Shown in pieces: positions 6,385 to 24,158 of a stretch of 32,000 nucleotides of DNA. The DNA lies in NCBI GenBank assembly GCA_037444445.1, contig JBBIMK010000019.1, positions 5,573-37,572 of the forward strand, in the 5' to 3' direction. A program made the translations under genes and the position numbers. The notes beneath the pieces are model-generated. The model was not told the DNA's origin, searched no databases, and saw nothing but the letters and a program-made list of their open reading frames with translations. This DNA comes from a bacterium (GTDB lineage Bacteria > UBP7 > UBA6624 > JBBIMK01). Position 1 is the stretch's first letter; every line of letters starts with the position of its first letter.

Positions 6385-7710
6385 TCAGGCGGGTGGCGGG
6401 GCTTCCACAGGAGCCATCTCTTCCTCTTCCGGCGCCTCCACCACCAGTATTCCTTTATCCACGAGAAACTTCTCAATCAACAGGGCGTTTTCCTCACCCA
6501 CGCCCTCCAGTGCCGAGAGTTCAGAAATCGTGAAGCGGAACAAATCGCCCACCACATTCAACCCATTCTTTTTCAGGATTTCCACCACTCCTGCCGGAAG
6601 GTCTGTCTTCTCTAACTCCAGCGCTGGCAGGGCTTTAAATTCGCTTTCTTTGACGATGTCAATATACCAGCCGGTCAGTTTCCCCGCCAGGCGCACATTC
6701 TCCCCTTGCTTTCCGATAGCCTGGGAGTAAGCCTTATCCGGAACCTCCACAATCATCTTCCGCTTTCCGGGTTCCAGGTTGACGATATGCACCGCATTGA
6801 TGTCCTGGAGCTTGAGGGGGCTGAGAGCGTTACTGACGAACTTTTTCGGGTCATCATCGTAGTGAATCACATCAATGCGTTCACCGGAGAGCATACGGAC
6901 GATGGGGAGGATTCTTCTCCCTTCAGCGCCGATGCAGGCTCCCACCGGGTCCACATTCGGGTCTTTAGAAATCACCGCCACCTTCGCCCGAACACCGGGA
7001 GAACGAACGACCTTCTTCACTTCTACCAGCCCGTGACGCACTTCGGGAATTTCCCGCTCAAATAGCTTCTTCAGCAGGTCGGGATGGGTTCGGGAAACGC
7101 GAGCCAGCGGCACGCCCGTGGGAGTCTTGGTGATTTTCAACAGTAGCACTTCCAGTTCCTTTCCCCGCCGTAGTTTTTCATCACGGATTCGCTCCCGAAA
7201 TTCCAGAACCGCATCCAGTTTATTCAGGTCCAGCCACACATCACCCCGTTCATCCATTTTATAAATTTTCCCCGTGACCAATTCATTCTCCTTCACTTTC
7301 ATTTTTTGAAAGAGGTTTTCCCGCTCCCGATTGATGATGTTCTGCACGAATTCTTCCCCGGCTGCCTGGAGGGCGATTCGGCTGAAGTCCTTCAGCGAGA
7401 TTTCTTCCCGATAAAACTCGCCTGCGCCCGTATAAGGCTCTTTTTTCGTCGCTTCTTCCACCGAGATTTCCAGAACTGGATTCTCCACCTTCGGCACGAC
7501 GCGTTTCAAAAGATACATCCTGGCAATCCCTTTCTGCAAATCCAGTTCTACCCGAAGGTTCTCCGGCGGGCTTTCCAGATGCTTGTCCTTCATATAGCCC
7601 ACCTTCAGTGCGGATTCCAGCGCCGCCTCCAGTTCTCCCTTTTCCAGCGCCCGCTCCCGGGAAATCGTTTGAACCAATTCCACAATCTCTGCCTGCCGCT
7701 CTTCAGCCAT
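6385..7710 (-). CDS. nusA: Transcription termination/antitermination factor NusA
   Basis: 441 aa. It has an NusA N-terminal domain, an S1 region (GKIYKMDERGDVWLDLNKLDAVL), KH1/KH2 regions (SRTHPDLLKKLFEREIPEV, GVRAKVAVISKDPNVDPVGACIGAEGRRI, AIGKQGENVRLAGKLTGWYIDI) and a C-terminal HhH-like segment. It lies downstream of rimP as usual. Confidence 0.97.
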   Translation of the reverse strand: MAEERQAEIVELVQTISRERALEKGELEAALESALKVGYMKDKHLESPPENLRVELDLQKGIARMYLLKRVVPKVENPVLEISVEEATKKEPYTGAGEFYREEISLKDFSRIALQAAGEEFVQNIINRERENLFQKMKVKENELVTGKIYKMDERGDVWLDLNKLDAVLEFRERIRDEKLRRGKELEVLLLKITKTPTGVPLARVSRTHPDLLKKLFEREIPEVRHGLVEVKKVVRSPGVRAKVAVISKDPNVDPVGACIGAEGRRILPIVRMLSGERIDVIHYDDDPKKFVSNALSPLKLQDINAVHIVNLEPGKRKMIVEVPDKAYSQAIGKQGENVRLAGKLTGWYIDIVKESEFKALPALELEKTDLPAGVVEILKKNGLNVVGDLFRFTISELSALEGVGEENALLIEKFLVDKGILVVEAPEEEEMAPVEAPPPA

Positions 7711-7918
7711 CTATCTTCCCTGCCTTCATTGAAGGATTTTCAGTTCCTGCAAATTCTACTAATCCAATTGTAACACATCATCCTTTCTATGGACCCGGAA
7801 AACCCTCCTGTGCTCACCGCTTCTTGTGGCAAACATTCGCTTATTTGAATTCGCTCAGAATGGAAGATTCTACATTGGTTTTACATTCACCCATTCCGCA
7901 TTTATTCACTCCTGCACT

Positions 7919-8380
7919 CTAAAATTCTATCGCGGGCTCTATCCGAACGGATTGAATCACTTCCTCTGGAATAAAACGCTTTTCTCCCTCGGAAAACAGC
8001 AGTAGCACACCCTCCTGATACTCCCGGAGTTCCCCTTTATATATTTTCTCATTCTTCAAAATGACACGGACTTTATAGCCTTGATACCGGATGAAATGCT
8101 CTTTCTTTTTCAAAGCCCGGTCCACCCCAGGAGAGGAAACTTCCAGATGGTAGTCCCCTCCGAGGAGTTCTTCTATCATAGGTTCATTTCGGATGAGGTT
8201 ATTCACCTTCACACAATCCTCAATGCCCGTTTTCCCTTCTCTTTCAATAAACACCCGAACCTGGGGGTTCGTGGAGAGGATACCGGTGATGGAGATGTCC
8301 CACAATTCATACCCCCGTGAAGAAAGGATTTTTTCAATTCGCCACTCAATTTCCCGTTTTCTTTCCTCAATATGAGACAA
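7919..8380 (-). CDS. rimP: Ribosome maturation factor RimP
   Basis: 153 aa. It has the typical RimP layout: GYELWDISI..., VRVFIEREGK.GIEDCVKVN, the hallmark YHLEVSSPGVDRALKK, and a C-terminal Sm-like part (YKVRVIL...YKGEL). It sits upstream of nusA. Confidence 0.93.
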   Translation of the reverse strand: MSHIEERKREIEWRIEKILSSRGYELWDISITGILSTNPQVRVFIEREGKTGIEDCVKVNNLIRNEPMIEELLGGDYHLEVSSPGVDRALKKKEHFIRYQGYKVRVILKNEKIYKGELREYQEGVLLLFSEGEKRFIPEEVIQSVRIEPAIEF

Positions 8381-8392
8381 TTTCTCTCCTTT

Positions 8393-9052
8393 CTACGGGA
8401 GAAATTTGACCGATTGGATTTTTTCCATCATCTTCAATTGTTCCACCACGGTTTGGGGCTGAATTGCTTCCGGCAGGTGAATCTCGTAGACCAGTTCAAC
8501 GGTGTGTGGGGAGATTTTCTCAAATTCCATTTCCTCCACCCCGATGCCTAACTGGTCAAAGAGGCGGTGGATGGACCCTGTTACCGCAGGGTCATCGGTG
8601 GTCAGGATGCGGAGAATGCGAGGGGGATAAAGGCCTCGGTAAGCAGGCTTCTCTATTCTTGGCACGAGGAAAAGAGTGAACCAGACAAGGACAAAGGCAG
8701 AGATGGCGAGCAGGTAAATGCCCAGCCCAATAGCGAGGCCGAGGCCCGCGGAAATCCACAAAGTCGCCGCCGTAGTCAGCCCTTTCACCACACCGCCGTA
8801 ACTCATAATGGCGCCCGCCCCGAGAAAACCAACTCCCACCACAACCTGAGCGGCAATCCGTGTTACATCCGCACCTTCATTCACTTCACCCATCCATAAA
8901 GAAGCCAGAGCAAACAGGCAGGCACCGAGGGATACAAGAGCATGAGTTCGTGTTCCCGCAGGCTTGCCCACCCGCTTCCGCTCATACCCCAGCAACCCCC
9001 CCGCGATGACTGAGAAGAGTAGCCTTAAAATCCCTTCCAGGGCCCCGGGCAT
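8393..9052 (-). CDS. MgtC/SapB family membrane protein with a C-terminal ACT-like domain
   Basis: 219 aa. The MgtC signature is GGLLGYERKRVGKPAGTRTHALVSLGACLF ... AAQVVVGVGFLGAGAIM ... GLTTAATLWISAGLGLAIG. A soluble C-terminal domain follows. Confidence 0.9.
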   Translation of the reverse strand: MPGALEGILRLLFSVIAGGLLGYERKRVGKPAGTRTHALVSLGACLFALASLWMGEVNEGADVTRIAAQVVVGVGFLGAGAIMSYGGVVKGLTTAATLWISAGLGLAIGLGIYLLAISAFVLVWFTLFLVPRIEKPAYRGLYPPRILRILTTDDPAVTGSIHRLFDQLGIGVEEMEFEKISPHTVELVYEIHLPEAIQPQTVVEQLKMMEKIQSVKFLP

Positions 9053-9053
9053 C

Positions 9054-9689
9054 CTAAGTTTTCCTCCAGAGAGCCTGCAGAATATCCCAGTACATCCGAA
9101 AACGCCAGAGAATTCCCCTCCGGGGTCCTACCTTCTCTTCCTTCAACCGATGGGTCATACCCTCCAGGGCTACCTTTTGAATCCTCAGGTTCCTCTTCTG
9201 CGCCCAGCGGGTTAACGCAACCTCCAGTTGATAACCAGAGTAGAGATGAAAAGGGAACTCTTTCAACCATTCCCGACGAATAGCACGCTGGCCCGATAGT
9301 TCCGGGGCGATTCGTTGAGCCATATCCGTGGACGCCCGTCCCTTATGAAAAATTCCCACCGTCATATCCGCCGTCCCTAAAAATACCGGCTCCACCAGAG
9401 CCTCTATATGCCTGGATGTAAGTCCAATCAAATCTGCATCCACCAACAGAAGAACATCCCCACCCGCTGCCATTATTCCCTGATATATGGCCCGGGCTTT
9501 TCCACGATTTTCCTCCAGGCGAATGAGATGCACCCTTCCGTATCTCATCACCACGCGAGAGGTCCCATCCGTAGAGCCATCATCCACCACAATGACTTCA
9601 TCCACCACGGGGCAGGATGCCACAACATCTAACACCCTCCCGATATTTGCCTCTTCATTAAACGCTGGAACAATAGCTGAAACCTTCAT
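9054..9689 (-). CDS. Family 2 glycosyltransferase (GT-A fold)
   Basis: 211 aa. MKVSAIVPAFNEEANIGRVLD...EVIVVDDGSTDGT...NRGKARAIYQGIMAAGGDVLLLVDADL shows the classic GT2 nucleotide-binding region and DxD motif. Substrate specificity cannot be inferred. Confidence 0.85.
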   Translation of the reverse strand: MKVSAIVPAFNEEANIGRVLDVVASCPVVDEVIVVDDGSTDGTSRVVMRYGRVHLIRLEENRGKARAIYQGIMAAGGDVLLLVDADLIGLTSRHIEALVEPVFLGTADMTVGIFHKGRASTDMAQRIAPELSGQRAIRREWLKEFPFHLYSGYQLEVALTRWAQKRNLRIQKVALEGMTHRLKEEKVGPRRGILWRFRMYWDILQALWRKT

Positions 9690-9705
9690 GCTATTCGCTT
9701 CCCAC

Positions 9706-10188
9706 TCACGAGTATACTCTTATGCCTATCCCGGTAATAAATTTTTTTAGAGTTTTCAGCCTTTCGCTTTTGCTCCTCTTTATCGCATTGATGAGTTGTT
9801 CAAAATTCCGCAGGTTTGCAGGTTGATTTATCACCTTTTTGATTTTATTTCCTTCATCCGGCAGGGCGAATCTGGATAAATCTATTTCCGCTTCCGATGC
9901 AGTTTTCACAATCCAACTTTCTAACATCGGACACAATACGATTAAGAGATTTTGCCTTTTCCCATCCTTGCATAGTTTTATTTCGTCTTTGCGCGCAATT
10001 AGTTGCATCTCTTTCAAATACCAGGGTTGGACAGATTCCGGGTCCTCATCTACCAATCCCTTTGAATTCGTGCTATTTCTTAAATGCTTGCACACATTTC
10101 CTTTACCGCCTGAATGTGTGATATTCTTTTTTCTCCCCTCAAGAGTTTTCACCAGGATTTTATCAGGCTTGCACTCCACAAATATCAT
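9706..10188 (-). CDS. Small Toprim-like protein (E ... GGK ... DxD arrangement as in DUF4435/OLD-type Toprim), partner of the upstream ATPase
   Basis: I trimmed the start from the track ORF (10248, which overlaps the ATPase gene) to ATG 10188, 4 nt after the ATPase stop. The 160-aa product begins MIFVECKPDKILVKTLEGRKKNITHSGGKGNVCKHLRNSTNSKGLVDEDPES. It has the acidic VEC..D motif, a GGK motif and a DED motif about 41 residues after the Glu. The region is AT-rich. The family assignment comes from motif order only. Confidence 0.6.
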   Translation of the reverse strand: MIFVECKPDKILVKTLEGRKKNITHSGGKGNVCKHLRNSTNSKGLVDEDPESVQPWYLKEMQLIARKDEIKLCKDGKRQNLLIVLCPMLESWIVKTASEAEIDLSRFALPDEGNKIKKVINQPANLRNFEQLINAIKRSKSERLKTLKKFITGIGIRVYS

Positions 10189-10192
10189 TCTA

Positions 10193-11179
10193 TCATGCTT
10201 TTTCCAAGAAACGCTCCAGGTTGAAAAACACGCTGGAGTCCATCTCAAGTATTTCAGCCAACTCCTCTTGAACGAGAGGCCTCACCTTCGTTTGATAATC
10301 ACCATAGTAAGTAATAAAAATCTTGATTTCATCTATGGGTGTTTTTTCTAATACCGCAAGTAGAAAATAGGGATTGTGAGTGGAAATAAAATATTGATTG
10401 GAATCATCTATGGCGATATTTTCTGCGAGATACTTCGTGTAATACGGGAAAGCGTGGGCTTCCGGCTCCTCAAAGATGATGATGGAATCCTTGTTCGTTT
10501 CCATGGCTACAAAATGAAAAACCACTCGCAGTAAAGTATCAGAAGCCAGTGAATAAGGATAAGCAATGAAAGTTCCATCACTCTCTTTCAGAACCTCAAT
10601 TTTATTTTCTGTTTGTCTTAAGTTAATCCGAAACCCGTATTCGCGGAAGAAATCTGTTACCCGCTTCCTTAATTCTTTATGGGTTATAAGAATCGTCAGG
10701 AGATTTTCTCCCCCAGGTGGTAAAAGATAATCTGCCTCCTGGCTTTTGAAACTATCCAACACTTGAAAACGATAGAATTTGAAAGGTAAAGGTTTACTGA
10801 TAGGTTTTGTGGAAAGGATTAGACCGGCTTCATTACAGGAAATGTGAAAGAGGGGCTTTTGCCTGGCTTTATCTACTAAACTCAGATGGAATTGTCTATC
10901 TTTGTAACTGACTTCGCATCCATACTCACCAGCACTGATTCTGATGTTAGAGACCAGATTGTTGTCATAAAACAGGTTCGTCATAGATTCAATTCGGATA
11001 AAATCCCTCAGATGCTTATACTCTTTACCCTGAATATGTGGAAGTGAGAAGATGCCCACACTTTCCAGGATGTTAGATTTTCCTGCATTCGGTTCACCGA
11101 TGAAAATGTTGACTCTTTTACAATCCAGTCTTAAATGTTTGATAGACTTAAAGTTCCTGACTTTTAGGGTGTTTATCAT
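10193..11179 (-). CDS. ABC/SMC-type ATPase of the AAA_15/AAA_21 (OLD / AbiL / PARIS AriA-like) group
   Basis: 328 aa. The N-terminus MINTLKVRNFKSIKHLRLDCKRVNIFIGEPNAGKSNILESV contains Walker A GEPNAGKS. It also has a signature-like LASDTLLRVV, Walker B plus D-loop SIIIFEEPEAHAFP, and an H-loop YFISTHNP. The ATG lies 10 nt after the ispG stop. It is markedly AT-rich compared with its flanks. Confidence 0.85.
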   Translation of the reverse strand: MINTLKVRNFKSIKHLRLDCKRVNIFIGEPNAGKSNILESVGIFSLPHIQGKEYKHLRDFIRIESMTNLFYDNNLVSNIRISAGEYGCEVSYKDRQFHLSLVDKARQKPLFHISCNEAGLILSTKPISKPLPFKFYRFQVLDSFKSQEADYLLPPGGENLLTILITHKELRKRVTDFFREYGFRINLRQTENKIEVLKESDGTFIAYPYSLASDTLLRVVFHFVAMETNKDSIIIFEEPEAHAFPYYTKYLAENIAIDDSNQYFISTHNPYFLLAVLEKTPIDEIKIFITYYGDYQTKVRPLVQEELAEILEMDSSVFFNLERFLEKA

Positions 11180-11189
11180 TTCTACACCA

Positions 11190-12296
11190 TTATTGAATGC
11201 CTTTCAGGTGGTCGCTTTCGTTCACGAGGCTTTTCACCCACTCTGTGATGTGGGCTTCCAGTTGAGAATTAGGCACCCGTTCCACCTTTTTGCCTTTGAA
11301 ATAAAGGGTGGAGGTGTTCACTCCGCCGGCGATGCCCAGGTCTGCCATGCGGGATTCACCGGGACCATTGACTTCACACCCCATCACAGCGATGCGAACT
11401 AACTGCTCGGGCGCCTTGAGTTCCTTCAAGACCTTTTTCACCTGCTGGGACAGGAATTCTACATCCACCCTGAGCCTACCGCATCCGGGGCAGGCTATCA
11501 GGTCAAATCCCTTCTCCCGTAAGCCCAGGGCTTTCAGGATTTCAAACCCTGCCTGCACTTCTTCCACCGCCGGTCCTGCCAGAGAGACCCGGAGGGTATC
11601 TCCGATGCCTTCCTCTAAAAGGACGCCCAGCCCGATGGCAGATTTAATGATGGCTTCCATCCCGCTTCCCGCCTCTGTGACCCCCAGGTGAAAAGGGTAG
11701 GGGCACTGGCTTGCCATCATCCTGTAAGCCGCAATGGTTTCCATCACCCGGGAAGATTTCATAGAAATGACAATCTGGTCAAACCCTTCTTCTTCAAAAT
11801 CCCGGATGTAGAACAACACGGTTTCCACCATTGCCTTCGGAATCTGGTCGGCATACCGGATATAAAATTCCGGAGGAAGGGAACCCGCATTCACCCCGAT
11901 GCGGATGGAAGCCCCTTTCTGCTTCGCTTCCCGAACAATCTGGCGGAGGATGGGACCGCTTTTCGTATTCCCGGGGTTCAGGCGGAGTTTATCTGCCCCC
12001 GCTTCCAGGGCCTTCAGGGCGATGCGGGGGTTAAAATGAATGTCCGCCACCAGGGGCACCTGAACTTCCTTTTTGAGAAGTTTCAAAAGGGAGGCATCCT
12101 CTTCTGTTGGAATAGCCACACGAAGAATCTCTACCCCGGCCTGCTCTACCTGATGTGCTTCCTTCAGCATCTTTTCTGTATCTCGCAGGGAGTGCTTGAG
12201 CATGCTCTGGACGGCAATGGGATGATTCCCTCCCAGCATCACCCTGCCCACTTTTACCGGGATGGTTTTCCGCCGGTTCTTCACTTCACTTGTCAT
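11190..12296 (-). CDS. ispG: 4-hydroxy-3-methylbut-2-en-1-yl diphosphate synthase (IspG/GcpE)
   Basis: I trimmed the start to ATG 12296, 2 nt after the rseP stop. The track ORF extends to 12536 across rseP in another frame with an implausible N-terminus. The 368-aa product reads MTSEVKNRRKTIPVKVGRVMLGGNHPIAVQSM...IHFNPRIALKALEAGADKLRLNPGN...RIGVNAGSL...SMKSS...PFHLGVTEAG...ACPGCGR...MGCEVNGPGE, which matches IspG throughout, including the Fe-S cysteines. Confidence 0.95.
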   Translation of the reverse strand: MTSEVKNRRKTIPVKVGRVMLGGNHPIAVQSMLKHSLRDTEKMLKEAHQVEQAGVEILRVAIPTEEDASLLKLLKKEVQVPLVADIHFNPRIALKALEAGADKLRLNPGNTKSGPILRQIVREAKQKGASIRIGVNAGSLPPEFYIRYADQIPKAMVETVLFYIRDFEEEGFDQIVISMKSSRVMETIAAYRMMASQCPYPFHLGVTEAGSGMEAIIKSAIGLGVLLEEGIGDTLRVSLAGPAVEEVQAGFEILKALGLREKGFDLIACPGCGRLRVDVEFLSQQVKKVLKELKAPEQLVRIAVMGCEVNGPGESRMADLGIAGGVNTSTLYFKGKKVERVPNSQLEAHITEWVKSLVNESDHLKGIQ

Positions 12297-12298
12297 CC

Positions 12299-13603
12299 TC
12301 ACCCTCGGATGCTCAAAATCCCCAGAATGTCCCGATAGGTCACCCACAGCATCAGGAGAATCAGAAGGAAAAATCCAGCGATATGGAAGGCATTTTCCAG
12401 CGTGCGATTCACCGGCTTGCGTGCCACCGCAAAAAGAATGAGGAAGAACAGCCTGCCTCCATCCAGGGCAGGGAACGGAACCAGGTTCACAATCCCCAGC
12501 GTTACAGAAAGTAGAGCCATCTGAAACAGAAGCCATTTGAAGCCAGACTCCAGGGCTTGAAGCGTATACTTAAATATCCCTACCGGTCCCACAATCTCCG
12601 CTTCTTTACGACCGGTGAACAGCCCCTCGAAAAATTCCCAGAAACCCTGAAAAACGGAAACGAAACGCTCTCCAGCAATCTGAAGCCCCTGAATCAGTCC
12701 AACCGGCTCTCTCTCCATCTCAAATACCATACCCGGGTGTTGCCTTTCTTCCATCTGTAGTGTAACCTGGAACGGATTCCCCTCCCTCATTCCTTCCAGC
12801 CGAATCTGTTTCGGCGGTTCCGCTTCGGAAATCTGGAGGGATGCCTGAAACAATTCGGGTGGCATTCCATCTATCCGTTGAATTGTATCTCCGACTCGGA
12901 CACCCGCTTTCTCCGCGGGGCTGTGGGGCAAAATCTGAACCACTTTTCCAGAGATTTGTGCCGCCTCCGTAAGAAGAACGCCCAGACCCACCATCCGTTC
13001 CCCGGGTTGCCCTATCTCTCCCGGCGTCACAGAAATCTCCCGGATCCCCTCCCGCCCTTCAACCTTCAACAGAAGAGGCTGGTTGCCTGCTGACTGCACC
13101 AAGCGAGACAATTCCATCCTGTTCAGTGTTTTCCCGTTGACACTCAGAATTAACTCCCCTGCCCCCAATCCCGCCTTCTCTGCAGGAGACCCACGCAGAA
13201 CTCCCTGGATGAGTGGAATATGTCGTGGAATACCATAGCCCACTGCTTCCCCATAAAATAACAGGTAGCCAGCCAGTAAATTCATCATAGGACCGGCAAC
13301 CAGAATGAGGCTCTTCTGCCAGGTTTTTTTGGTGGCATAACTATCGGGTTCCAAAAGGTTCGCTTCTTCTTCGTCCTCCAGCCCTTTGAGACGAACATAT
13401 CCACCTAAAAGCAGAAGTCTTAACGACAGCACAGTGGATTTGAAGGGTTTCTTCACCAGAGGAGGTCCGAAGCCCACGCTAAATTCTTTCACCGCCACTC
13501 CCATCATTCTGGCTCCGACGAAATGCCCCCACTCATGGATGACTATCAACGCCCCAATGAGCAGAGCAATCATCAGGTAACCCAGGAAAGTTGCCAGGGT
13601 CAT
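12299..13603 (-). CDS. rseP: Site-2 zinc metalloprotease RseP/RasP (M50 family, two PDZ domains)
   Basis: 434 aa. The HExxH motif sits in the first TM helix (IVIHEWGHFVGARMMG). Two PDZ-like blocks are present (GSPAEKAGLGAGELILSVNG and HSPAEKAGVRVGDTIQRIDG). The C-terminal motif is NLVPFPALDGGRL. Its ATG overlaps the cdsA stop as ATGA. Confidence 0.93.
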   Translation of the reverse strand: MTLATFLGYLMIALLIGALIVIHEWGHFVGARMMGVAVKEFSVGFGPPLVKKPFKSTVLSLRLLLLGGYVRLKGLEDEEEANLLEPDSYATKKTWQKSLILVAGPMMNLLAGYLLFYGEAVGYGIPRHIPLIQGVLRGSPAEKAGLGAGELILSVNGKTLNRMELSRLVQSAGNQPLLLKVEGREGIREISVTPGEIGQPGERMVGLGVLLTEAAQISGKVVQILPHSPAEKAGVRVGDTIQRIDGMPPELFQASLQISEAEPPKQIRLEGMREGNPFQVTLQMEERQHPGMVFEMEREPVGLIQGLQIAGERFVSVFQGFWEFFEGLFTGRKEAEIVGPVGIFKYTLQALESGFKWLLFQMALLSVTLGIVNLVPFPALDGGRLFFLILFAVARKPVNRTLENAFHIAGFFLLILLMLWVTYRDILGILSIRG

Positions 13604-14475
13604 CCCGCACCTCCTGCCGATGGCAACACCCAGTAACGCAAAAGGTAAAAGCCCACTGGAAGCGTGAAAAGAAAACTATCCATCCGGTCCAGCAAGCCTC
13701 CATGCCCCGGGATGAGCCGGGAAGAATCCTTCGCTTGCACCTCTCGTTTCAAGGCGGACACGCTCAAATCTCCCAGTTGCGCCGCTATCCCGAGAATCCC
13801 TCCCAACAGGAGGCAATTCCAGAGCGGTAGCCCGAGATGCTTCAGCCCGAACCACCACAGGAGTGCAAAGGCGGCGGTCACGCCTGCCAGCCCTCCTGCC
13901 ATTCCTTCCCAGGTTTTCTTCGGGCTCAACACCGGTGTCATCCGAGTTTCACCGAAGAGTTTCCCGCTAAAAAAAGCGGAGGTGTCATACCCCCACGCCC
14001 CCACCACAGGCACCAGGATAAGGTAATCCACCTTCATCTGCTCCGAAACCCCCGTGTAGAACTTTTTATACAGGAAGATATAACTCAACAGACCCGCTAT
14101 ATAGAAACTTCCAAACAGGGTTACAGCCAGTTCCGGCACCCGATAAGGCCGTCGTCCGCTGGCATTTTGTATCACCTGAATCAGAAACGACAGCAGGATG
14201 AATACCGCTACAAGAAATCCCAGATAATTTTCTTGAACCTCTTGCTGTTCTGAAAAAAAGGACATCAACAGAATCAACAGAGCGAACGGGTAACCAATCA
14301 CTTTTGCCGTTTTCGTTCCCTCCCGGGATAGGAGGCTGTAAAATTCCCGGAGCGCCTGCCCCGCCACGAGAATCACGCCCACCAGCAGGGCATAGCCACC
14401 CCACAAGAGCATAAAAACCGCCGTCGTCCCGAGAATCACTCCCCAGAACAACCGGCGGACAAGGTCATTTTTCAT
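13600..14475 (-). CDS. cdsA: Phosphatidate cytidylyltransferase (CDP-diglyceride synthase)
   Basis: 291 aa and polytopic. The CdsA signature region is SPKKTWEGMAGG ... DLSVSALKREVQAKDSSRLIPGHGGLLDRMDSFLF. It overlaps the uppS stop by 11 nt. Confidence 0.92.
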   Translation of the reverse strand: MKNDLVRRLFWGVILGTTAVFMLLWGGYALLVGVILVAGQALREFYSLLSREGTKTAKVIGYPFALLILLMSFFSEQQEVQENYLGFLVAVFILLSFLIQVIQNASGRRPYRVPELAVTLFGSFYIAGLLSYIFLYKKFYTGVSEQMKVDYLILVPVVGAWGYDTSAFFSGKLFGETRMTPVLSPKKTWEGMAGGLAGVTAAFALLWWFGLKHLGLPLWNCLLLGGILGIAAQLGDLSVSALKREVQAKDSSRLIPGHGGLLDRMDSFLFTLPVGFYLLRYWVLPSAGGAG

Positions 14476-15196
14476 CCGGCACCTGCACTCGCCCGAAGCG
14501 CCGCTCCCGCTTCTGATAATTGTCTATCGCTTCATTCAAGTCTTCCTCCGTAAAATCAGGCCAGAGGGTGGGAGTGAAAAATAACTCGGAGTATGCTACC
14601 TGCCACAGGAGAAAATCGCTCAGGCGGTATTCATTACTGGTGCGAATCAGCAGGTCCGGGTCCGCCATCCCATTGGTATACAATTCCTTACGGAAGTCCT
14701 CCGGGGAAATGGTAGAAGATTGGAGTTTACCCTGTTCAACCTTTTCACACAGCCGCTGGGCCGCCCGCACAATCTCTTCCCTGCCACTGTAATTGATGGC
14801 TACATTCAAAAGCATGCGCGAGTTGTTTTGAGTGGCAGACTCCACCTCCTGAAGGTCCTGACGAATTTGCTCTGGAAGCAGAGAACGGTCACCAATCATC
14901 CGAAACCGTATCTTCTCTTTCATCAGGGTGGGAAGTTCCAGGTGTAGATACTGGTGGAGAAGAGAGAATAAAGCCTCAATCTCTTCCTCCGGCCGTCCCC
15001 AGTTATCCCGGGAGAAGGCAAAGAGGGTGAGAATTTTCACGCCCCGGCGAGCGCAGGCTTCCACCACTCGCCTTACCGTTTTCGCCCCTTCCTTATGCCC
15101 TTCTATTCGCGGTAAGCCGTGCTGTGTAGCCCACCGCCCATTCCCATCCATAATGATGGCGATATGCTCAGGTATTCTCTCTCCCTTTTGTTCCAT
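14465..15196 (-). CDS. uppS: Isoprenyl transferase / undecaprenyl diphosphate synthase
   Basis: 243 aa. HIAIIMDGNGRWA, GHKEGAKTVRRVVE, LTLFAFSRDNWGRPEEE, LLIRTSNEYRLSDFLLWQVAYSELFF and RRFG are the canonical cis-prenyltransferase motifs. Confidence 0.96.
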   Translation of the reverse strand: MEQKGERIPEHIAIIMDGNGRWATQHGLPRIEGHKEGAKTVRRVVEACARRGVKILTLFAFSRDNWGRPEEEIEALFSLLHQYLHLELPTLMKEKIRFRMIGDRSLLPEQIRQDLQEVESATQNNSRMLLNVAINYSGREEIVRAAQRLCEKVEQGKLQSSTISPEDFRKELYTNGMADPDLLIRTSNEYRLSDFLLWQVAYSELFFTPTLWPDFTEEDLNEAIDNYQKRERRFGRVQVPDEK

Positions 15197-19823: not shown

Positions 19824-22800
19824 TTAGATTTCCATCGCGTCGGCGAACACCAGCCGACGAGCCCTGGGCACCGGGGCGGCAGTCAACGGAGTCTCAGACG
19901 ATGGAGCAGTTCCTTCCCCTGCTTTATCCGCCCTGAACCACTCATATTCCTTGATGACCAATCGGAAGGGCTGGGAACCCCGAGGGGCGGGCAGGATGAC
20001 CTGACCCGTCCACACATTTTCTTTCTCTGGCTTCACGGGTGGAGGGGTGGATAGGATGCCCTCCCGGATGATTTCTCCGGGAGCGGTGGATTCAGGAGTG
20101 AATCTCTGGATGACTTTCGGCCGGAGTCTTACGGGTGGAGGGGATGGGCGGGATGGAGCGCCGAGGGTAAAGGTGGCATCGGGGACGGGAACCCAGCCCA
20201 CATCTCCTTCCACACCCTCCTGCCTTGTCTCCACGGTCACCTCTACTTCGGAAGGACCTTTGCCCGCTGTCGTCTCCGTGTATGAAATCCCGGAAACCGT
20301 GACGGTGAGAACCTTCGGGTCGCCGGGGTCATAGGAGAGGGTAACAGTGCGGTGGGGTGCCAGCTGGGCAAAATCGGCAAGGACGACCCGGGAAAGATGG
20401 GCGTTCTCAATGGAATTGGGCTGATAACGGGCAAGGGCAAGACGAACGAAGGGATAATAAGAATCTCCGGGGTCCAGTTCTATGTCAAAGAACCAGAGCC
20501 CTCTATCCGGGTCGTAATGAGGCTCGTAACCCGCCACAGAAACCTGGTTGGACTCGGGATGGTCAGTTAATTCTTCCAGCGTTAAGCCGGATTGCTTTCT
20601 GGCGGTATTCTTAAAATGTGTCAGGGCTGGGCTGGCAAAAGAAGGGGTGGGGCTGGATTTCCATATAGGGTCCATCCCCCACTGGGTTACATAGGGCTTG
20701 AGGATGTCAGGAATTTCTGGCTCGGGTTGGGCAGGTCTGATGCCGGGCAGGATACCGCTGATGCCTCCACCCATGCCCACCGCTCGGCGGATGGTGGGTG
20801 CAACTCCCGGGAGGATGACGCCCAATAACTCGCCGTCGCCGGAGGACCACCAGGGACGCTTCACATACACCCGAAGCCCTCCCCCGGTGCGTCGGCTCTC
20901 CCTTCCACCCGCCGTCTCCTTCTTCTCCCACCCAAAGGTGGGAATCACATACAGCACCCCGGGGGCAGAAGGACGAGCAGAGTTGGGTATATCTACCTCA
21001 AACTCCTCGCTCTCCCGGGTAATGTTCTTCGGGTCAGAAGTGATGGCAGGAGAGAAATACTCACGAAATCGGGTGCTGGCTACTGCCCTGTAATAAACCT
21101 TTCGGTATTTCGTATCACCGAATTCATGGCGAGGAGCCACCACAGGAAGCAGAGCGCTAACGACCAACGCAGGGGATATACCACGAATTGCTCCCGTGCC
21201 CAGCCCGTCTTCCCGTGGAGGGCTGTAGGAAGAGCCTTCTCCTTGCCCGAGGATGAGGGCTTTCTTCTCTTCGCTGTAGCGGACGCTTCCGCCGGCTACG
21301 GGAACCGCTTTTTCATCCAGTTGAACAGGGGCTTCAAACGCACGGGCGTTCCCGTATAGCCGGTCTTTATCCGGAATATTGGTAGGGCTGGCTGGCTCAT
21401 CCACCGGCTCGCTCCACCGTGCCAGAAGGTCAATTTTCATCGTGCTCTTCCCATGAACATTCACCACCCCATCCAGGCCAGCGAAAGTATCACCGATATT
21501 CCTGCCTGGCTTTAATGCAGTAATTTTGGGGATGAGCAGAGGCTGTTGAACCGCATGAACCAGAGTCAGTTCACGATACGGGGTAAGGAGCCAGAGTTTC
21601 CCGATGGCACCCAGTTTTGTGAAGTCAGCCATGGCTAAGGCTTTGGGCTGAATCGCTCCCATATCCATCTTCGGCGCCGCATAAGAGGGCTGGCTTTCCA
21701 GCCTTGCCTCCACCTTCTCCTTCATCCACTGCCACATTCCAAAGGTGTTCAAATCCTTTTCATCAAGATGGGCGCTGAGGCGAACCGTTGCCACTTCCGC
21801 TTTCGGCAGGTAGACCGTGAGGAGGCGGGAGGAGGCATTCCACCGGGGCTTTCCAGAGCCTTCCTCCACACGAATGCGGAATGGCAAAGCATCAGGCCAG
21901 TTTTCGGGAGTGTTCTGAAAGTCCACATCTATCACCTCTCCCGCAGGGGCGCCGGGAAGGCCTTCAAAAGCAGCTTTCCGCGCCAGCGGGTCAGGCAGGT
22001 AAGGCAATACCAACTGCTCCTCGCTCTGAATGGCATAACGGAGGGGCTTGGACGGGTTTTCAGGGTTGGGAAATTCCACCTCCTGGAATCTGCCCACATC
22101 CTTCTGGGCAATCATCTGATAGGTGGCGGGGTCGCCTTTCATTCCGCCAGTGGTTTTATCATCAAATAACCCGTGAGTTTCAGCCATCAGTTGAGAGGTT
22201 TTCGGCGGGGCGATGTGACGCTCCGTGGCTTCACCCGTGGGAATGGCATCTTTTGCAGGGGAGTCGTTGAAGGTGCGAATCACCAATCGCTCTAACGATT
22301 CACCTTCTCTGGGCTTTTCACGCAGGACGACGGGAGGAGTCTGGATGGGTTCAAAGCGCTGATAGGATTGGGCGGAAGAAGCCAGGGAAGCGTCCGCTTC
22401 CTCCAGGGAGAGGCTGTTACCTGCCAGGTCCACCGCCCTCGCCCTCAGGCGGTAAGAAACACCGAAGCGGAGGCGGGGAAGAGTGCCAGGCACAACGGGC
22501 GAAAAATTGACCTCCAGCCCGAAGGCAGTGACCGCTTTATTCTGTATCTCCCCAGGCGTGTCATCCGGTTTGATAGTCCTGCCCGGCCTGGGAACGCAGA
22601 GGCTCCAGCCATCCCATCGGAAGAGGGATTCGTGAACAAACAGGTCAGAGTCGGTAGCGCCAGGCACCCGGGTTGCCGCTGAGGAAACCATCCCTTCATC
22701 CACGATTTCCACATCCTCGTTGATGGAACTGAAGTGATACTTTCCCTTTCGCCAGCACAGGGAGTGCCATTGATTGGATTGAGAATCCCAGACATCAATC

Positions 22801-24158
22801 CGGTAACCCCTGACCAGGTCCTCGGCATATAAAGTGATGTCCTGAGAGGCCGAGAGGGCATCATTTCTCTGTTTTGCGGACTGGAAGGATTGATTGAGGC
22901 GGTCAGCGCGCCCATTTCTCACTATAGAAAGCCCGGCAGAGCGCATAGAGGGTAAGCCCTGCCTTTGAGGCGGAGGTGCCTCAGGGGCTCCCGAAGGCTG
23001 GTCCACTACGGGTGGAGCGTCGGCTTTCTTCAGCATCACCATAGCGGGAGCCTTGAAGGTGAGAACTCGTTGCAGGTTGCGGGCAAAGTCCATAACCTTC
23101 ATTGCCGCCCCGTCCACATCCACCTGCACCAGCTCATACATCTCCGGGTCGTTCAATTTCAGCATGCCATCCTGAATCTCGGGATTCTGTGGCCGTGGCT
23201 TCGCCAGAAACTTCCCCCCCTTGATTTCATACGCAGTCCAGGGGGAAGAGTTGGTGGTAGAGGGCAATTGCGCCGCCCAGTTGGGGATTACTCTCAGAGT
23301 GGAAGAAGGGGGAATGGAAGAAGAATAGGGAATTTCCAGGTCCACCACCAGCCCCAGCATCCGTAACAACTCCGGATATTCGCCAAGGGACGAGAGTGCC
23401 TGGTGAAAATCTATCTCCGGGATTTGTGGGGGAATGGGCTTCATCAGCAGGGGTTGGTGGAAAAACTGAACCTGCAGGAAGTCCACGGGTGTGTTTCTAA
23501 CCGGACTGAAGGGGATGGCTTTCCTGCCCTTGAATTCCTTCTCTAATTCCGAGGGCATAGGGCGCACTGAAGATACGGGCGCATCCACTCCCGGAGGCGC
23601 ATGCCCCACAGAAGAGCGAAGTTGCGGTATAGAATGCAGGACGGTGGGACCCAGCCCAACTGTGGCATCCTTCGGATTTATCAGGGTTTGAATCTCCGGC
23701 AACTCCGTAGGTGAAGAGATAGCCACATTCTGATAGGTCTCTTTCAGGTATGAGAGGACATGCTTCACAGGGAAAGAATGGATTTTCCGCTCCGAATAAT
23801 CCTCAAACTTGTGAGGGCGAACAAAGGTGGATTCATTGAACAGGGCTTTCCAGAGGCTGGAATCCGGGTCCGGACTCGTCCGGGGAGCGGGAATGGGAGC
23901 CCCGTTTCCGAATTGAACCGAGAACTGGATGGATTTCAGAGTGGCGGGCAAATCCAGAAAATCCGGAAATTGAGACAGAGTCGGCTTCGGCAAGCCAATA
24001 CTCGTATCCAGGCGAGGGGAAAGAAAGACAGAAAGCCGAAGGCGCTGGTCGCCGCCAGAACCGGTGATGCCTGCAGGCAGAGCGGTCCAGAGGAGGAGTT
24101 GCTTCCTCTGCCCCGTTAGAGCCACAACCGGTGGAAGTTTTGGAATCATCACGCCCAT
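19824..24158 (-). CDS. Giant hypothetical protein, 1444 aa, no recognisable domain, no N-terminal signal peptide
   Basis: An uninterrupted 4.3-kb ORF with host-like composition. The ATG is preceded by a GGGGG SD 8 nt upstream. All opposite-strand ORFs inside it are short. The N-terminus is MGVMIPKLPPVVALTGQRKQLLLWTALPAGITGSGGDQRLRLSVFLSPRL and the C-terminus is ...RRLVFADAMEI. I could not match any segment to a named family by eye. Confidence 0.85.
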   Translation of the reverse strand: MGVMIPKLPPVVALTGQRKQLLLWTALPAGITGSGGDQRLRLSVFLSPRLDTSIGLPKPTLSQFPDFLDLPATLKSIQFSVQFGNGAPIPAPRTSPDPDSSLWKALFNESTFVRPHKFEDYSERKIHSFPVKHVLSYLKETYQNVAISSPTELPEIQTLINPKDATVGLGPTVLHSIPQLRSSVGHAPPGVDAPVSSVRPMPSELEKEFKGRKAIPFSPVRNTPVDFLQVQFFHQPLLMKPIPPQIPEIDFHQALSSLGEYPELLRMLGLVVDLEIPYSSSIPPSSTLRVIPNWAAQLPSTTNSSPWTAYEIKGGKFLAKPRPQNPEIQDGMLKLNDPEMYELVQVDVDGAAMKVMDFARNLQRVLTFKAPAMVMLKKADAPPVVDQPSGAPEAPPPQRQGLPSMRSAGLSIVRNGRADRLNQSFQSAKQRNDALSASQDITLYAEDLVRGYRIDVWDSQSNQWHSLCWRKGKYHFSSINEDVEIVDEGMVSSAATRVPGATDSDLFVHESLFRWDGWSLCVPRPGRTIKPDDTPGEIQNKAVTAFGLEVNFSPVVPGTLPRLRFGVSYRLRARAVDLAGNSLSLEEADASLASSAQSYQRFEPIQTPPVVLREKPREGESLERLVIRTFNDSPAKDAIPTGEATERHIAPPKTSQLMAETHGLFDDKTTGGMKGDPATYQMIAQKDVGRFQEVEFPNPENPSKPLRYAIQSEEQLVLPYLPDPLARKAAFEGLPGAPAGEVIDVDFQNTPENWPDALPFRIRVEEGSGKPRWNASSRLLTVYLPKAEVATVRLSAHLDEKDLNTFGMWQWMKEKVEARLESQPSYAAPKMDMGAIQPKALAMADFTKLGAIGKLWLLTPYRELTLVHAVQQPLLIPKITALKPGRNIGDTFAGLDGVVNVHGKSTMKIDLLARWSEPVDEPASPTNIPDKDRLYGNARAFEAPVQLDEKAVPVAGGSVRYSEEKKALILGQGEGSSYSPPREDGLGTGAIRGISPALVVSALLPVVAPRHEFGDTKYRKVYYRAVASTRFREYFSPAITSDPKNITRESEEFEVDIPNSARPSAPGVLYVIPTFGWEKKETAGGRESRRTGGGLRVYVKRPWWSSGDGELLGVILPGVAPTIRRAVGMGGGISGILPGIRPAQPEPEIPDILKPYVTQWGMDPIWKSSPTPSFASPALTHFKNTARKQSGLTLEELTDHPESNQVSVAGYEPHYDPDRGLWFFDIELDPGDSYYPFVRLALARYQPNSIENAHLSRVVLADFAQLAPHRTVTLSYDPGDPKVLTVTVSGISYTETTAGKGPSEVEVTVETRQEGVEGDVGWVPVPDATFTLGAPSRPSPPPVRLRPKVIQRFTPESTAPGEIIREGILSTPPPVKPEKENVWTGQVILPAPRGSQPFRLVIKEYEWFRADKAGEGTAPSSETPLTAAPVPRARRLVFADAMEI

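Follow-up and report, generated by a model that had tools for sequence, protein, structure and literature searches.

A compact ATPase gene and a small partner gene as an apparently undescribed variant of the anti-virus modules that combine an ATPase with an effector in bacteria and archaea

What kind of system is encoded by the two small genes that interrupt a string of housekeeping genes on contig JBBIMK010000019.1 of a bacterium of the UBP7 lineage? The analysed stretch of this contig, 32,000 nucleotides long and denoted the window below, contains one gene for a 328-amino acid (aa) ATPase and one for a 160-aa partner protein. An initial annotation, made from the DNA letters and their translations, had proposed that the two genes form a miniature, split counterpart of the known ATPase-Toprim nucleases and, as such, a candidate anti-phage defence module, perhaps of a minimal or new subtype. 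In the analysis described here, the pair has the look of a variant, so far undescribed, of the modules by which bacteria and archaea oppose viruses with an ATPase and an effector. We consider it, with a probability of about 0.55, to be a conflict module that is self-contained and horizontally mobile, of the kind in which an OLD-type ABC ATPase is combined with an effector. Modules of this kind are already known (PMC11464382, PMC12065111, PMC12839542, PMC10568477), and the association of OLD-ABC ATPases with varied nucleases is a recurrent theme in defence (PMC11464382, PMC12065111, PMC12839542). The architecture is familiar, and both protein families lie outside the current models.

Both open reading frames (ORFs) exist as initially annotated, four nucleotides apart, and are located on the reverse strand, which had been left unspecified (Table 1). 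The ORF of the small gene can be extended mechanically to a TTG codon at 10248; the ATG at 10188 is preferred because all homologues begin with MI[FY]VEC, and the stop codon occupies 9706-9708. The close spacing points to translational coupling of the two genes. A pattern scan limited to one genome per species yielded 49 loci, in 48 of which the ATPase gene is found directly upstream of the small gene. The two genes overlap by four nucleotides (ATGA) in 34 of the 46 loci that could be evaluated, and nearly all others show a distance of -1 to +4 nucleotides. The ATPase and its partner co-diverge, with a correlation of r=0.83 between their protein distance matrices that was reached by 0 of 999 Mantel permutations. 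Given 2642 relatives of the ATPase in the database, 1312 clusters of small-protein relatives and adjacency in 48/49 loci, the pair is real and beyond chance.

The distribution of the pair is patchy and crosses the boundary between the domains. Archaea account for fourteen of the 49 loci (Methanophagales, Methanoperedenaceae, Syntrophoarchaeum, Archaeoglobaceae, Nitrososphaerota, Thermoplasmatales and others); the bacterial loci include those of Dehalococcoidia, Zixibacteria, KSB1, Ignavibacteriota and the cultured Fulvivirga imtechensis AK7. Copies from different domains and phyla are about 45-60% identical. Approximately six copies (about 12%) are disrupted, either by a split of the ATPase into two ORFs or by truncation of the small gene to 50-84 codons (loci L016, L032, L053, L055, L056 and L058), and the small-gene fragment in L055 has no ATPase gene upstream.

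The larger protein belongs to the AAA_15/AAA_21 superfamily, as the initial annotation had it. It matches Pfam AAA_15 at 61.4 bits (E=1.6e-16; cut-off 32.1) and AAA_21 at 29.5 bits (E=1e-6; cut-off 27), both above the gathering scores, and its four motifs follow one another in the ABC order. All the motifs quoted in that annotation are present in the ATPase and in the small protein alike, and the ATPase indeed lacks a long insert. Its relatives are uniform in size (313-343 aa in all 120 listed). Conserved among these 120 members are the motifs G.PN.GKSN.LE, PFKFYRF, LPP.GENL, YPYSL.SDTL, FEEPEAHAFP and STHNPYF; throughout the family Walker B has Glu as its acid (FEEPE) where Asp (DEPE) is usual, and S-D-T replaces the canonical S-G-G of the ABC signature. 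Judged by its sequence, the protein is an OLD-type ABC ATPase that falls outside every named family of defence ATPases. The best PADLOC scores are those of AriA (64 bits), GajA (55 bits), NsnB (54 bits, residues 1-292) and AbiLi (53 bits), accompanied by weak matches to HEC-01A and several PDC-M candidates; the E-values of these weak matches (to PARIS, Gabija, Menshen, AbiL, HEC-01 and PDC candidates) range from 1e-10 to 1e-18. Among the NCBIfam models, those for the Eco8 effector, MADS3 (1.1e-8), RecF and PtuA are matched, all well under their cut-offs. Weak similarity extends to RecF, Rad50 and SMC_N (the SMC_N and DUF2813 matches in Pfam are sub-threshold), and the sole sequence match in the PDB is the OLD protein of Thermus scotoductus (6P74, E=0.008).

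The family of the small partner is large, with 1312 representative clusters (defined at 50% identity) at E<=1e-3 and 828 at E<=1e-10. An exhaustive profile search was needed to collect it, the word-indexed search having retrieved only 14 relatives; nearly all of the 150 relatives listed are about 145-170 aa long. The window protein has no match in Pfam, PADLOC, NCBIfam or PHROGs, no library match was obtained for 67 relatives scanned singly or for the family consensus, and a search of PDB sequences with the family profile returned chance matches only. Because Pfam, PADLOC and NCBIfam hold no model of this family, it is missed by the current defence-annotation pipelines that build on these libraries.

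Conservation computed over 208 distinct sequences is concentrated in three motifs and a few basic residues: E5 (100%), C6 (96%) and D9 (96%); H25 (95%) and K29 (86%), the latter within the GGKGNV segment of residues 27-32; D47 (100%), E48 (93%), D49 (98%) and P50 (96%), D47 being at a distance of 42 residues from E5; and P87 (100%), E90 (100%), W92 (98%) and H117 (86%). AlphaFold2 models of the protein have mean predicted local distance difference test (pLDDT) values of 90.4 at full length and 91.7 for residues 1-102. The modelled topology is β1(2-4)-α-β2(23-25)-α-β3(43-47)-α-β(62-67)-β(70-75)-β(80-85)-α(89-99) with a helical tail behind it. In the model, β1 and β3 each have invariant acids at their C-terminal end, and a further one stands where the helix that follows the last strand begins. 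Helices bundled together make up the C-terminal half, in which H117 is the only conserved polar residue. The window copy bears an 8-residue C-terminal extension, GIGIRVYS, and deviates from the family at positions 116 and 117 (Table 1). A PIN domain was considered for the small protein and rejected: the first acid is a Glu with an Asp at +4, a DxD is present, and Foldseek returned no PIN domain, of which many structures have been solved.

The base composition of the pair is foreign to its surroundings, with a guanine-plus-cytosine (GC) fraction of 0.391 compared to 0.533 in the rest of the window. The genes are separated from their neighbours by intergenic spacers of only 10 and 16 nucleotides and lie within a conserved one-strand string of housekeeping genes (6385-15196, reverse strand) in the order uppS, cdsA, rseP, ispG, the ATPase gene, the small gene, a family-2 glycosyltransferase gene, mgtC, rimP and nusA (by Pfam matches). 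A sister contig (L062; Logan, SRR11582170) carries the same insertion at the identical site and in the same arrangement, so that the pair (window 9706-11179, L062 4038-5499) could be compared with five flanking housekeeping genes as the reference. Protein evolution in the pair is fast: the codon differences are 41 nonsynonymous to 15 synonymous in the pair and 50 to 107 in the five flanking genes (Fisher p=1e-7); the small gene contributes 18:4 and the ATPase gene 23:11. The small gene reaches a ratio of nonsynonymous to synonymous substitution rates (dN/dS) of 1.12 and the ATPase gene one of 0.53, against 0.10-0.21 for the flanking genes, and none of the changes between the window and the sister contig touches an invariant motif residue. 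Such an excess of amino acid changes fits either diversifying selection, as in immune genes, or relaxed constraint.

The pair is also carried by a provirus. The one clear case in the phage collection is the integrated pleolipovirus GahPV1 of Geoglobus ahangari (L061; BK065157.1, 5364-6805), in which gp15 and gp16 share 51% and 46% identity with the ATPase and the small protein, respectively (E=1e-49 for gp16). The two viral genes are located between two regulators of the winged helix-turn-helix/HxlR type and near a RelE/ParE toxin gene. They are annotated merely as 'AAA family ATPase' and 'hypothetical protein', and the paper describing GahPV1 is silent on both. In the cellular genomes there is no conserved third gene, the 143 nearest-neighbour proteins being scattered over 192 Pfam families. 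A minority of the neighbours are restriction-modification or helicase proteins (HsdR in two cases, Type ISP in two, ResIII in four), and 3 of the 143 match mad2. Other defence-like neighbours are CHAT and patatin proteins upstream in L009, PglZ downstream in L004 and a 594-aa OLD-like ATPase near the pair in Methanoperedens. Several loci contain a further dyad of an AAA_21 ATPase and a small partner within 0-7 kb of the pair, namely a MADS-like cluster of DUF1156 methyltransferase, AAA_21 and DUF4276 (1.6e-51) genes at a distance of 5 kb in L048 (2614-7360), an AAA_21 ATPase with a 195-aa protein without a Pfam match directly upstream in L058 (7274-9018), and an AAA_21 ATPase with a 175-aa protein in L050 (1894-3734). 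Provirus carriage and the occasional MADS or restriction-modification neighbours point towards a role in conflict.

The 175-aa protein of L050 (3207-3734; P0285-P0343) is of separate interest. It represents a subfamily of about 60 clusters, mostly from Dehalococcoidia-type contigs, that lies just under the Pfam threshold for DUF4276, with E<=0.01 for 23 of 28 members and a best value of 1.2e-7. One member also matches DUF4435, so that this short DUF4276 subfamily might be a bridge between Toprim-clan families.

Table 1. The ATPase/small-partner locus: features and their positions in the window
Feature	Position	Strand	Basis or remark
Low-GC insert between ispG and the family-2 glycosyltransferase gene	9700..11189		GC, junction reads, Pfam on flanks
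ATPase gene	10193..11179	-	328 aa, 38.3 kDa
Walker A/P-loop GEPNAGKS, residues 28-35 (Lys34)	11075..11098	-	Translation; G.PN.GKSN.LE at least 98% conserved in 120 members
ABC signature-like LASDTLL, residues 211-217	10529..10549	-	Translation; family consensus YPYSL.SDTLQR
Walker B/D-loop IIIFEEPEAHAFP, residues 233-245	10445..10483	-	Translation; EEPE at least 98% family-wide
H-loop FISTHNP, residues 264-270	10370..10390	-	Translation; STHNPYF kept in family
Spacer TAGA (4 nucleotides), ATPase stop to small-gene ATG	10189..10192	-	Junction GCA TGA-TAGA-ATG ATA read from sequence
Small-partner gene	9706..10188	-	160 aa counted from the ATG of MIFVECKPD; 18.3 kDa, isoelectric point 9.7
Motif 1 FVECKPD, residues 3-9	10162..10182	-	Glu5 ends strand 1; then Cys6, Asp9
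Motif 2 GLVDEDP, residues 44-50	10039..10059	-	D47-E48-D49 end strand 3
Motif 3 CPMLESW, residues 86-92	9913..9933	-	Pro87, Glu90, Trp92 open the helix after the last core strand
Small protein, residues 116-121	9826..9843	-	I116-K117 in window copy and sister; family Leu 85%, His 86% (consensus LHKxIN)

Some features of the window outside the pair can be recorded here. The mechanical ORF of ispG (GcpE; 11190-12536, reverse strand, 448 aa) overlaps the rseP ORF (12299-13603, reverse strand) by 238 nucleotides. Because the Pfam match begins only at residue 92 and the gene call in the sister genome is 368 aa long, the true ispG is probably 11190-12296, with an ATG start. Two adjacent ORFs of 1444 and 1497 aa (19824-24158 and 24275-28768, both on the reverse strand) have the size and arrangement expected of rpoC and rpoB. 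No tRNA or tmRNA gene and no Rfam family at the gathering score was found across the 32-kb window.

If the pair is a conflict module, a mode of action can be drawn by analogy with PARIS, Septu and Gabija. The 38-kDa ATPase would dimerize via its ATP sites, bind the 18-kDa partner and keep it inactive. Upon sensing an invader cue, for instance a protein of the virus or an aberrant end of a nucleic acid, the ATPase would change its nucleotide state and release or activate the partner. The basic partner might then cut DNA or RNA, possibly tRNA, and thereby stop the virus or the infected cell. The prediction that the partner is a divalent-metal phosphodiesterase comes from the clustering of E5, D9, D47-E48-D49, E90, H25 and K29 at the C-terminal ends of parallel strands. 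At this point, the complex of the two proteins, the partner's nuclease activity and Toprim fold, the trigger and the antiviral effect are all inferred.

Several observations weigh against this reading. The pair is wedged in a housekeeping string where space for a promoter of its own is not evident, and the position 117 occupied by His in 86% of the family is a Lys in the window copy. The excess of amino acid changes could mean relaxed constraint instead of an arms race. Enrichment near defence genes, for which the initial annotation had suggested a survey, is not evident among the nearest neighbours in the 49 loci, which are mostly metabolic or housekeeping proteins, with about 5% defence-like, as counted without a control set. 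Relatives of the small protein are absent from 72,556 plasmids, where the ATPase has only remote relatives, and a pattern scan of IMG/VR did not recover the pair. The remaining points concern the identity of the partner. Models of DUF4435, DUF4276, RloB and Toprim are not matched by the protein, by 67 relatives or by the consensus at E<=1-10. In hhalign comparisons, the family reaches a probability of 5.4% against the short DUF4276 subfamily (28 sequences) and 1.2% against canonical DUF4276 (72 sequences, from a metagenome scan). Foldseek gave no match at E<1e-3, either for the full model against PDB and BFVD or for the N-terminal 102-residue model against PDB.

Of the Toprim/DUF4435 core that had been assigned to the small protein, the order and placement of the motifs stand, while HMMER, hhalign and Foldseek yield no significant match to any nuclease or Toprim family. 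At the level of motifs, to which the fit is confined, hhhVE[G/C]xxD follows strand 1 and hhDxD follows strand 3, with the order, position and spacing expected of a Toprim domain. In addition, motif 3 (PxLExW) resembles the RREIEAWYL segment of the short DUF4276 subfamily that is encoded beside an AAA_21 ATPase in L050, and this segment is the only one that hhalign aligns between the two families. When a collinear, global hhalign alignment to this subfamily is scored, the value is 13.9, compared to 2.7±2.1 for 100 column-permuted profiles, 0/100 of which reached it; probabilities against single DUF4276-like neighbours are <=8.5%. The best Foldseek matches in the PDB are Rossmann domains of S-adenosylhomocysteine hydrolase (E 0.012-0.021, TM 0.27-0.38), there is no Toprim entry among the top 50 PDB matches, and BFVD likewise yielded nothing. 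The negative results of the profile comparisons and structure searches on the Toprim question are weak because the positive control, short against canonical DUF4276, reached only 76%, showing how weak the method is at such alignment depth, and because the short DUF4276 profile itself matches no PDB Toprim by sequence. Mean-field direct coupling analysis of about 150-200 sequences, applied to the strand order, gave a signal dominated by gap and insertion artefacts. A Toprim-style regular expression hit 0/734 unrelated neighbour ORFs and few true DUF4276 proteins; being circular, it was not used as evidence. Homology of the small protein to the Toprim fold is plausible but unproven, with roughly even odds, and remote homology to DUF4276 is conceivable. 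The broader description of the small protein as a metal-dependent phosphodiesterase-like effector is somewhat more likely than the Toprim fold.

A different answer, which we advance only tentatively, is that the partner has a novel effector fold rather than a Toprim fold, and forms with its minimal OLD-type ATPase a new compact defence system, common in archaea and uncultivated bacteria, that archaeal pleolipoviruses would carry for competition with other viruses. The candidate fold would comprise a beta-alpha-beta-alpha-beta core, a meander of three strands and a tail of helices, with an E/D/H/K metal site. There are further rival explanations. The pair might be a toxin-antitoxin (TA)-like addiction cassette, with the small protein as a toxin (a nuclease) and the ATPase as its neutralizer, or the reverse, that persists by post-segregational killing or selfish spread and lacks a dedicated antiviral role. 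Such a cassette would account for a stand-alone two-gene unit with overlapping genes, for copies that are single among housekeeping genes, outside defence islands and often pseudogenized, and for the RelE/ParE toxin gene beside the pair in GahPV1; the Pfam text for AAA_21 also reads 'putative AbiEii toxin, Type IV TA system'. We nevertheless regard it as unlikely, given that none of the 72,556 plasmids, on which addiction modules are common, carries the pair and that the ABC ATPases of this clade with a known role are defence sensors (PMC11464382). TA function and defence by abortive infection are, however, compatible and not mutually exclusive. That the small protein is a non-enzymatic adaptor or regulator, which tunes the ATPase or connects it with a target and the acidic cluster of which binds metal or the ATPase itself, appears to us rather improbable. 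In that case any effector activity would reside elsewhere, for instance in ATP depletion or in DNA binding by the ATPase. The failure of all searches to detect a nuclease or Toprim family, the C-terminal helical bundle devoid of conserved polar residues save H117, and the precedent of the inactive PIN domains of Menshen that serve as ATPase-binding adaptors (PMC12065111) are consistent with an adaptor; yet four acids conserved at 98-100%, with H25 and K29 also conserved and all of them at strand C-termini, are typical of catalytic metal sites and not of protein-protein interfaces, and no other effector gene is conserved beside the pair.

The comparison with the sister genome bears on the question whether the pair still functions in this bacterium. 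The counts of 18:4 and 23:11 against 50:107 in the flanking genes, the I116/K117 deviation from the Leu (85%) and His (86%) of the family and the unusual C-terminal extension would all be expected of a decaying passenger, the ORFs of which are intact although selection for function has gone. Both ORFs are nevertheless intact in two diverged genomes that retain, in both proteins, the motif residues conserved at 95-100%, as well as the 4-nucleotide spacing, and we consider decay quite improbable. The least probable explanation, in our view, is a housekeeping role in nucleic-acid maintenance, with a mini Rad50/SbcC-like or RecF-like ATPase and a small nuclease co-transcribed with core genes. The position of the pair in the uppS-cdsA-rseP-ispG...rimP-nusA string of both the window and the sister genome with its 10- and 16-nucleotide spacers, the housekeeping neighbours in many other loci and the weak matches to RecF, Rad50 and SMC_N are compatible with such a role. 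A core function is hard to reconcile with a patchy distribution in which bacterial and archaeal copies are about 50-60% identical, with a GC content 14 points lower than that of the surroundings, with a neighbourhood that differs in almost every genome, with the disruption of about 12% of the copies, with a nonsynonymous/synonymous ratio five-fold above that of adjacent core genes, and with carriage by a provirus.

The coupling of an OLD-type ABC ATPase to a nuclease underlies validated immunity in P2 Old, Gabija, PARIS, AbiL, Septu and retron Eco8. At 38 + 18 kDa and devoid of coiled-coil inserts, the pair would be smaller than any split version known so far and, on that account, an attractive minimal model of how an ATPase senses a trigger and controls an effector. 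The pair is frequent in archaea, including anaerobic methanotrophic archaea (ANME), Methanoperedens and Archaeoglobales, and is present in an archaeal provirus, and few defence systems have been characterized in these organisms. If the fold of the effector is indeed new, it would add a class of nucleases to the immune repertoire.

Classification of the pair as PARIS, Gabija, AbiL, Septu, MADS or Menshen fails in each case, and the earlier suggestion of a minimal or new subtype holds to that extent. With the OLD proteins of classes 1-3 (P2 Old, GajA and the retron Eco8 effector), the ATPase shares its clade, as reflected in the match to the T. scotoductus OLD structure and in the GajA and Eco8 matches at 1e-9 to 1e-15, and the pair shares the principle by which an ATPase is coupled to a nuclease that depends on metal. 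Those proteins, however, are fused ATPase-Toprim polypeptides of 530-700 aa, whereas here two genes are involved and Toprim_OLD is unmatched; neither the UvrD-like helicase (GajB) of class 2 nor the reverse transcriptase that would mark a class 3 OLD is conserved among the nearest neighbours. AbiL, Septu and Menshen likewise combine an AAA_15 ATPase with a separate effector in a dyad or triad, and the NsnB match covers nearly the whole ATPase (1-292 of 328). Their partners, in contrast, are RloB, HNH or inPIN-effector proteins, and Menshen adds DUF3696 and NsnA. For the pair, RloB (PF13707)/AbiLii is unmatched in Pfam and PADLOC, HNH is unmatched and PtuA in NCBIfam reaches 28.6 bits where the cut-off demands 500, DUF3696 is unmatched with the ATPase ending at residue 328, and there is no DUF262 or NsnC-like neighbour.

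MADS3-MADS4 (mad3/mad4) and other AAA_21/DUF4276 dyads consist of an AAA_15/21 ATPase of about 360 aa followed by a partner of about 175-235 aa; the DUF4276 partners contain an N-terminal hhhVEGxxD, a central acidic and a C-terminal hExW motif, and the same three-motif order is found here. The present partner differs in its length of 150-160 aa, in a Cys for Gly after the Glu and in a beta-hairpin insert; hmmscan with DUF4276 (PF14103) was empty for the protein, 67 members and the consensus, and the methyltransferase (DUF1156/mad2) or any other mad gene is absent from the window and from most loci. PARIS comprises AriA, an ATPase of about 55 kDa with the coiled-coil insertions IS1 and IS2, and AriB, a 35-kDa DUF4435 protein (PMC11464382). 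The pair is smaller, at 38 + 18 kDa, its AriA match falls into two stretches, the better of which covers residues 1-48, with no full-length match, and neither DUF4435 (PF14491) nor the PADLOC AriB model is matched. It resembles PARIS in the two-gene split, in the combination of an OLD-type ABC ATPase with a separate small effector, in the E...DxD chemistry and in AriA as the top PADLOC match of the ATPase, and PARIS is often found on integrated mobile elements, as the pair described here is found on a provirus.

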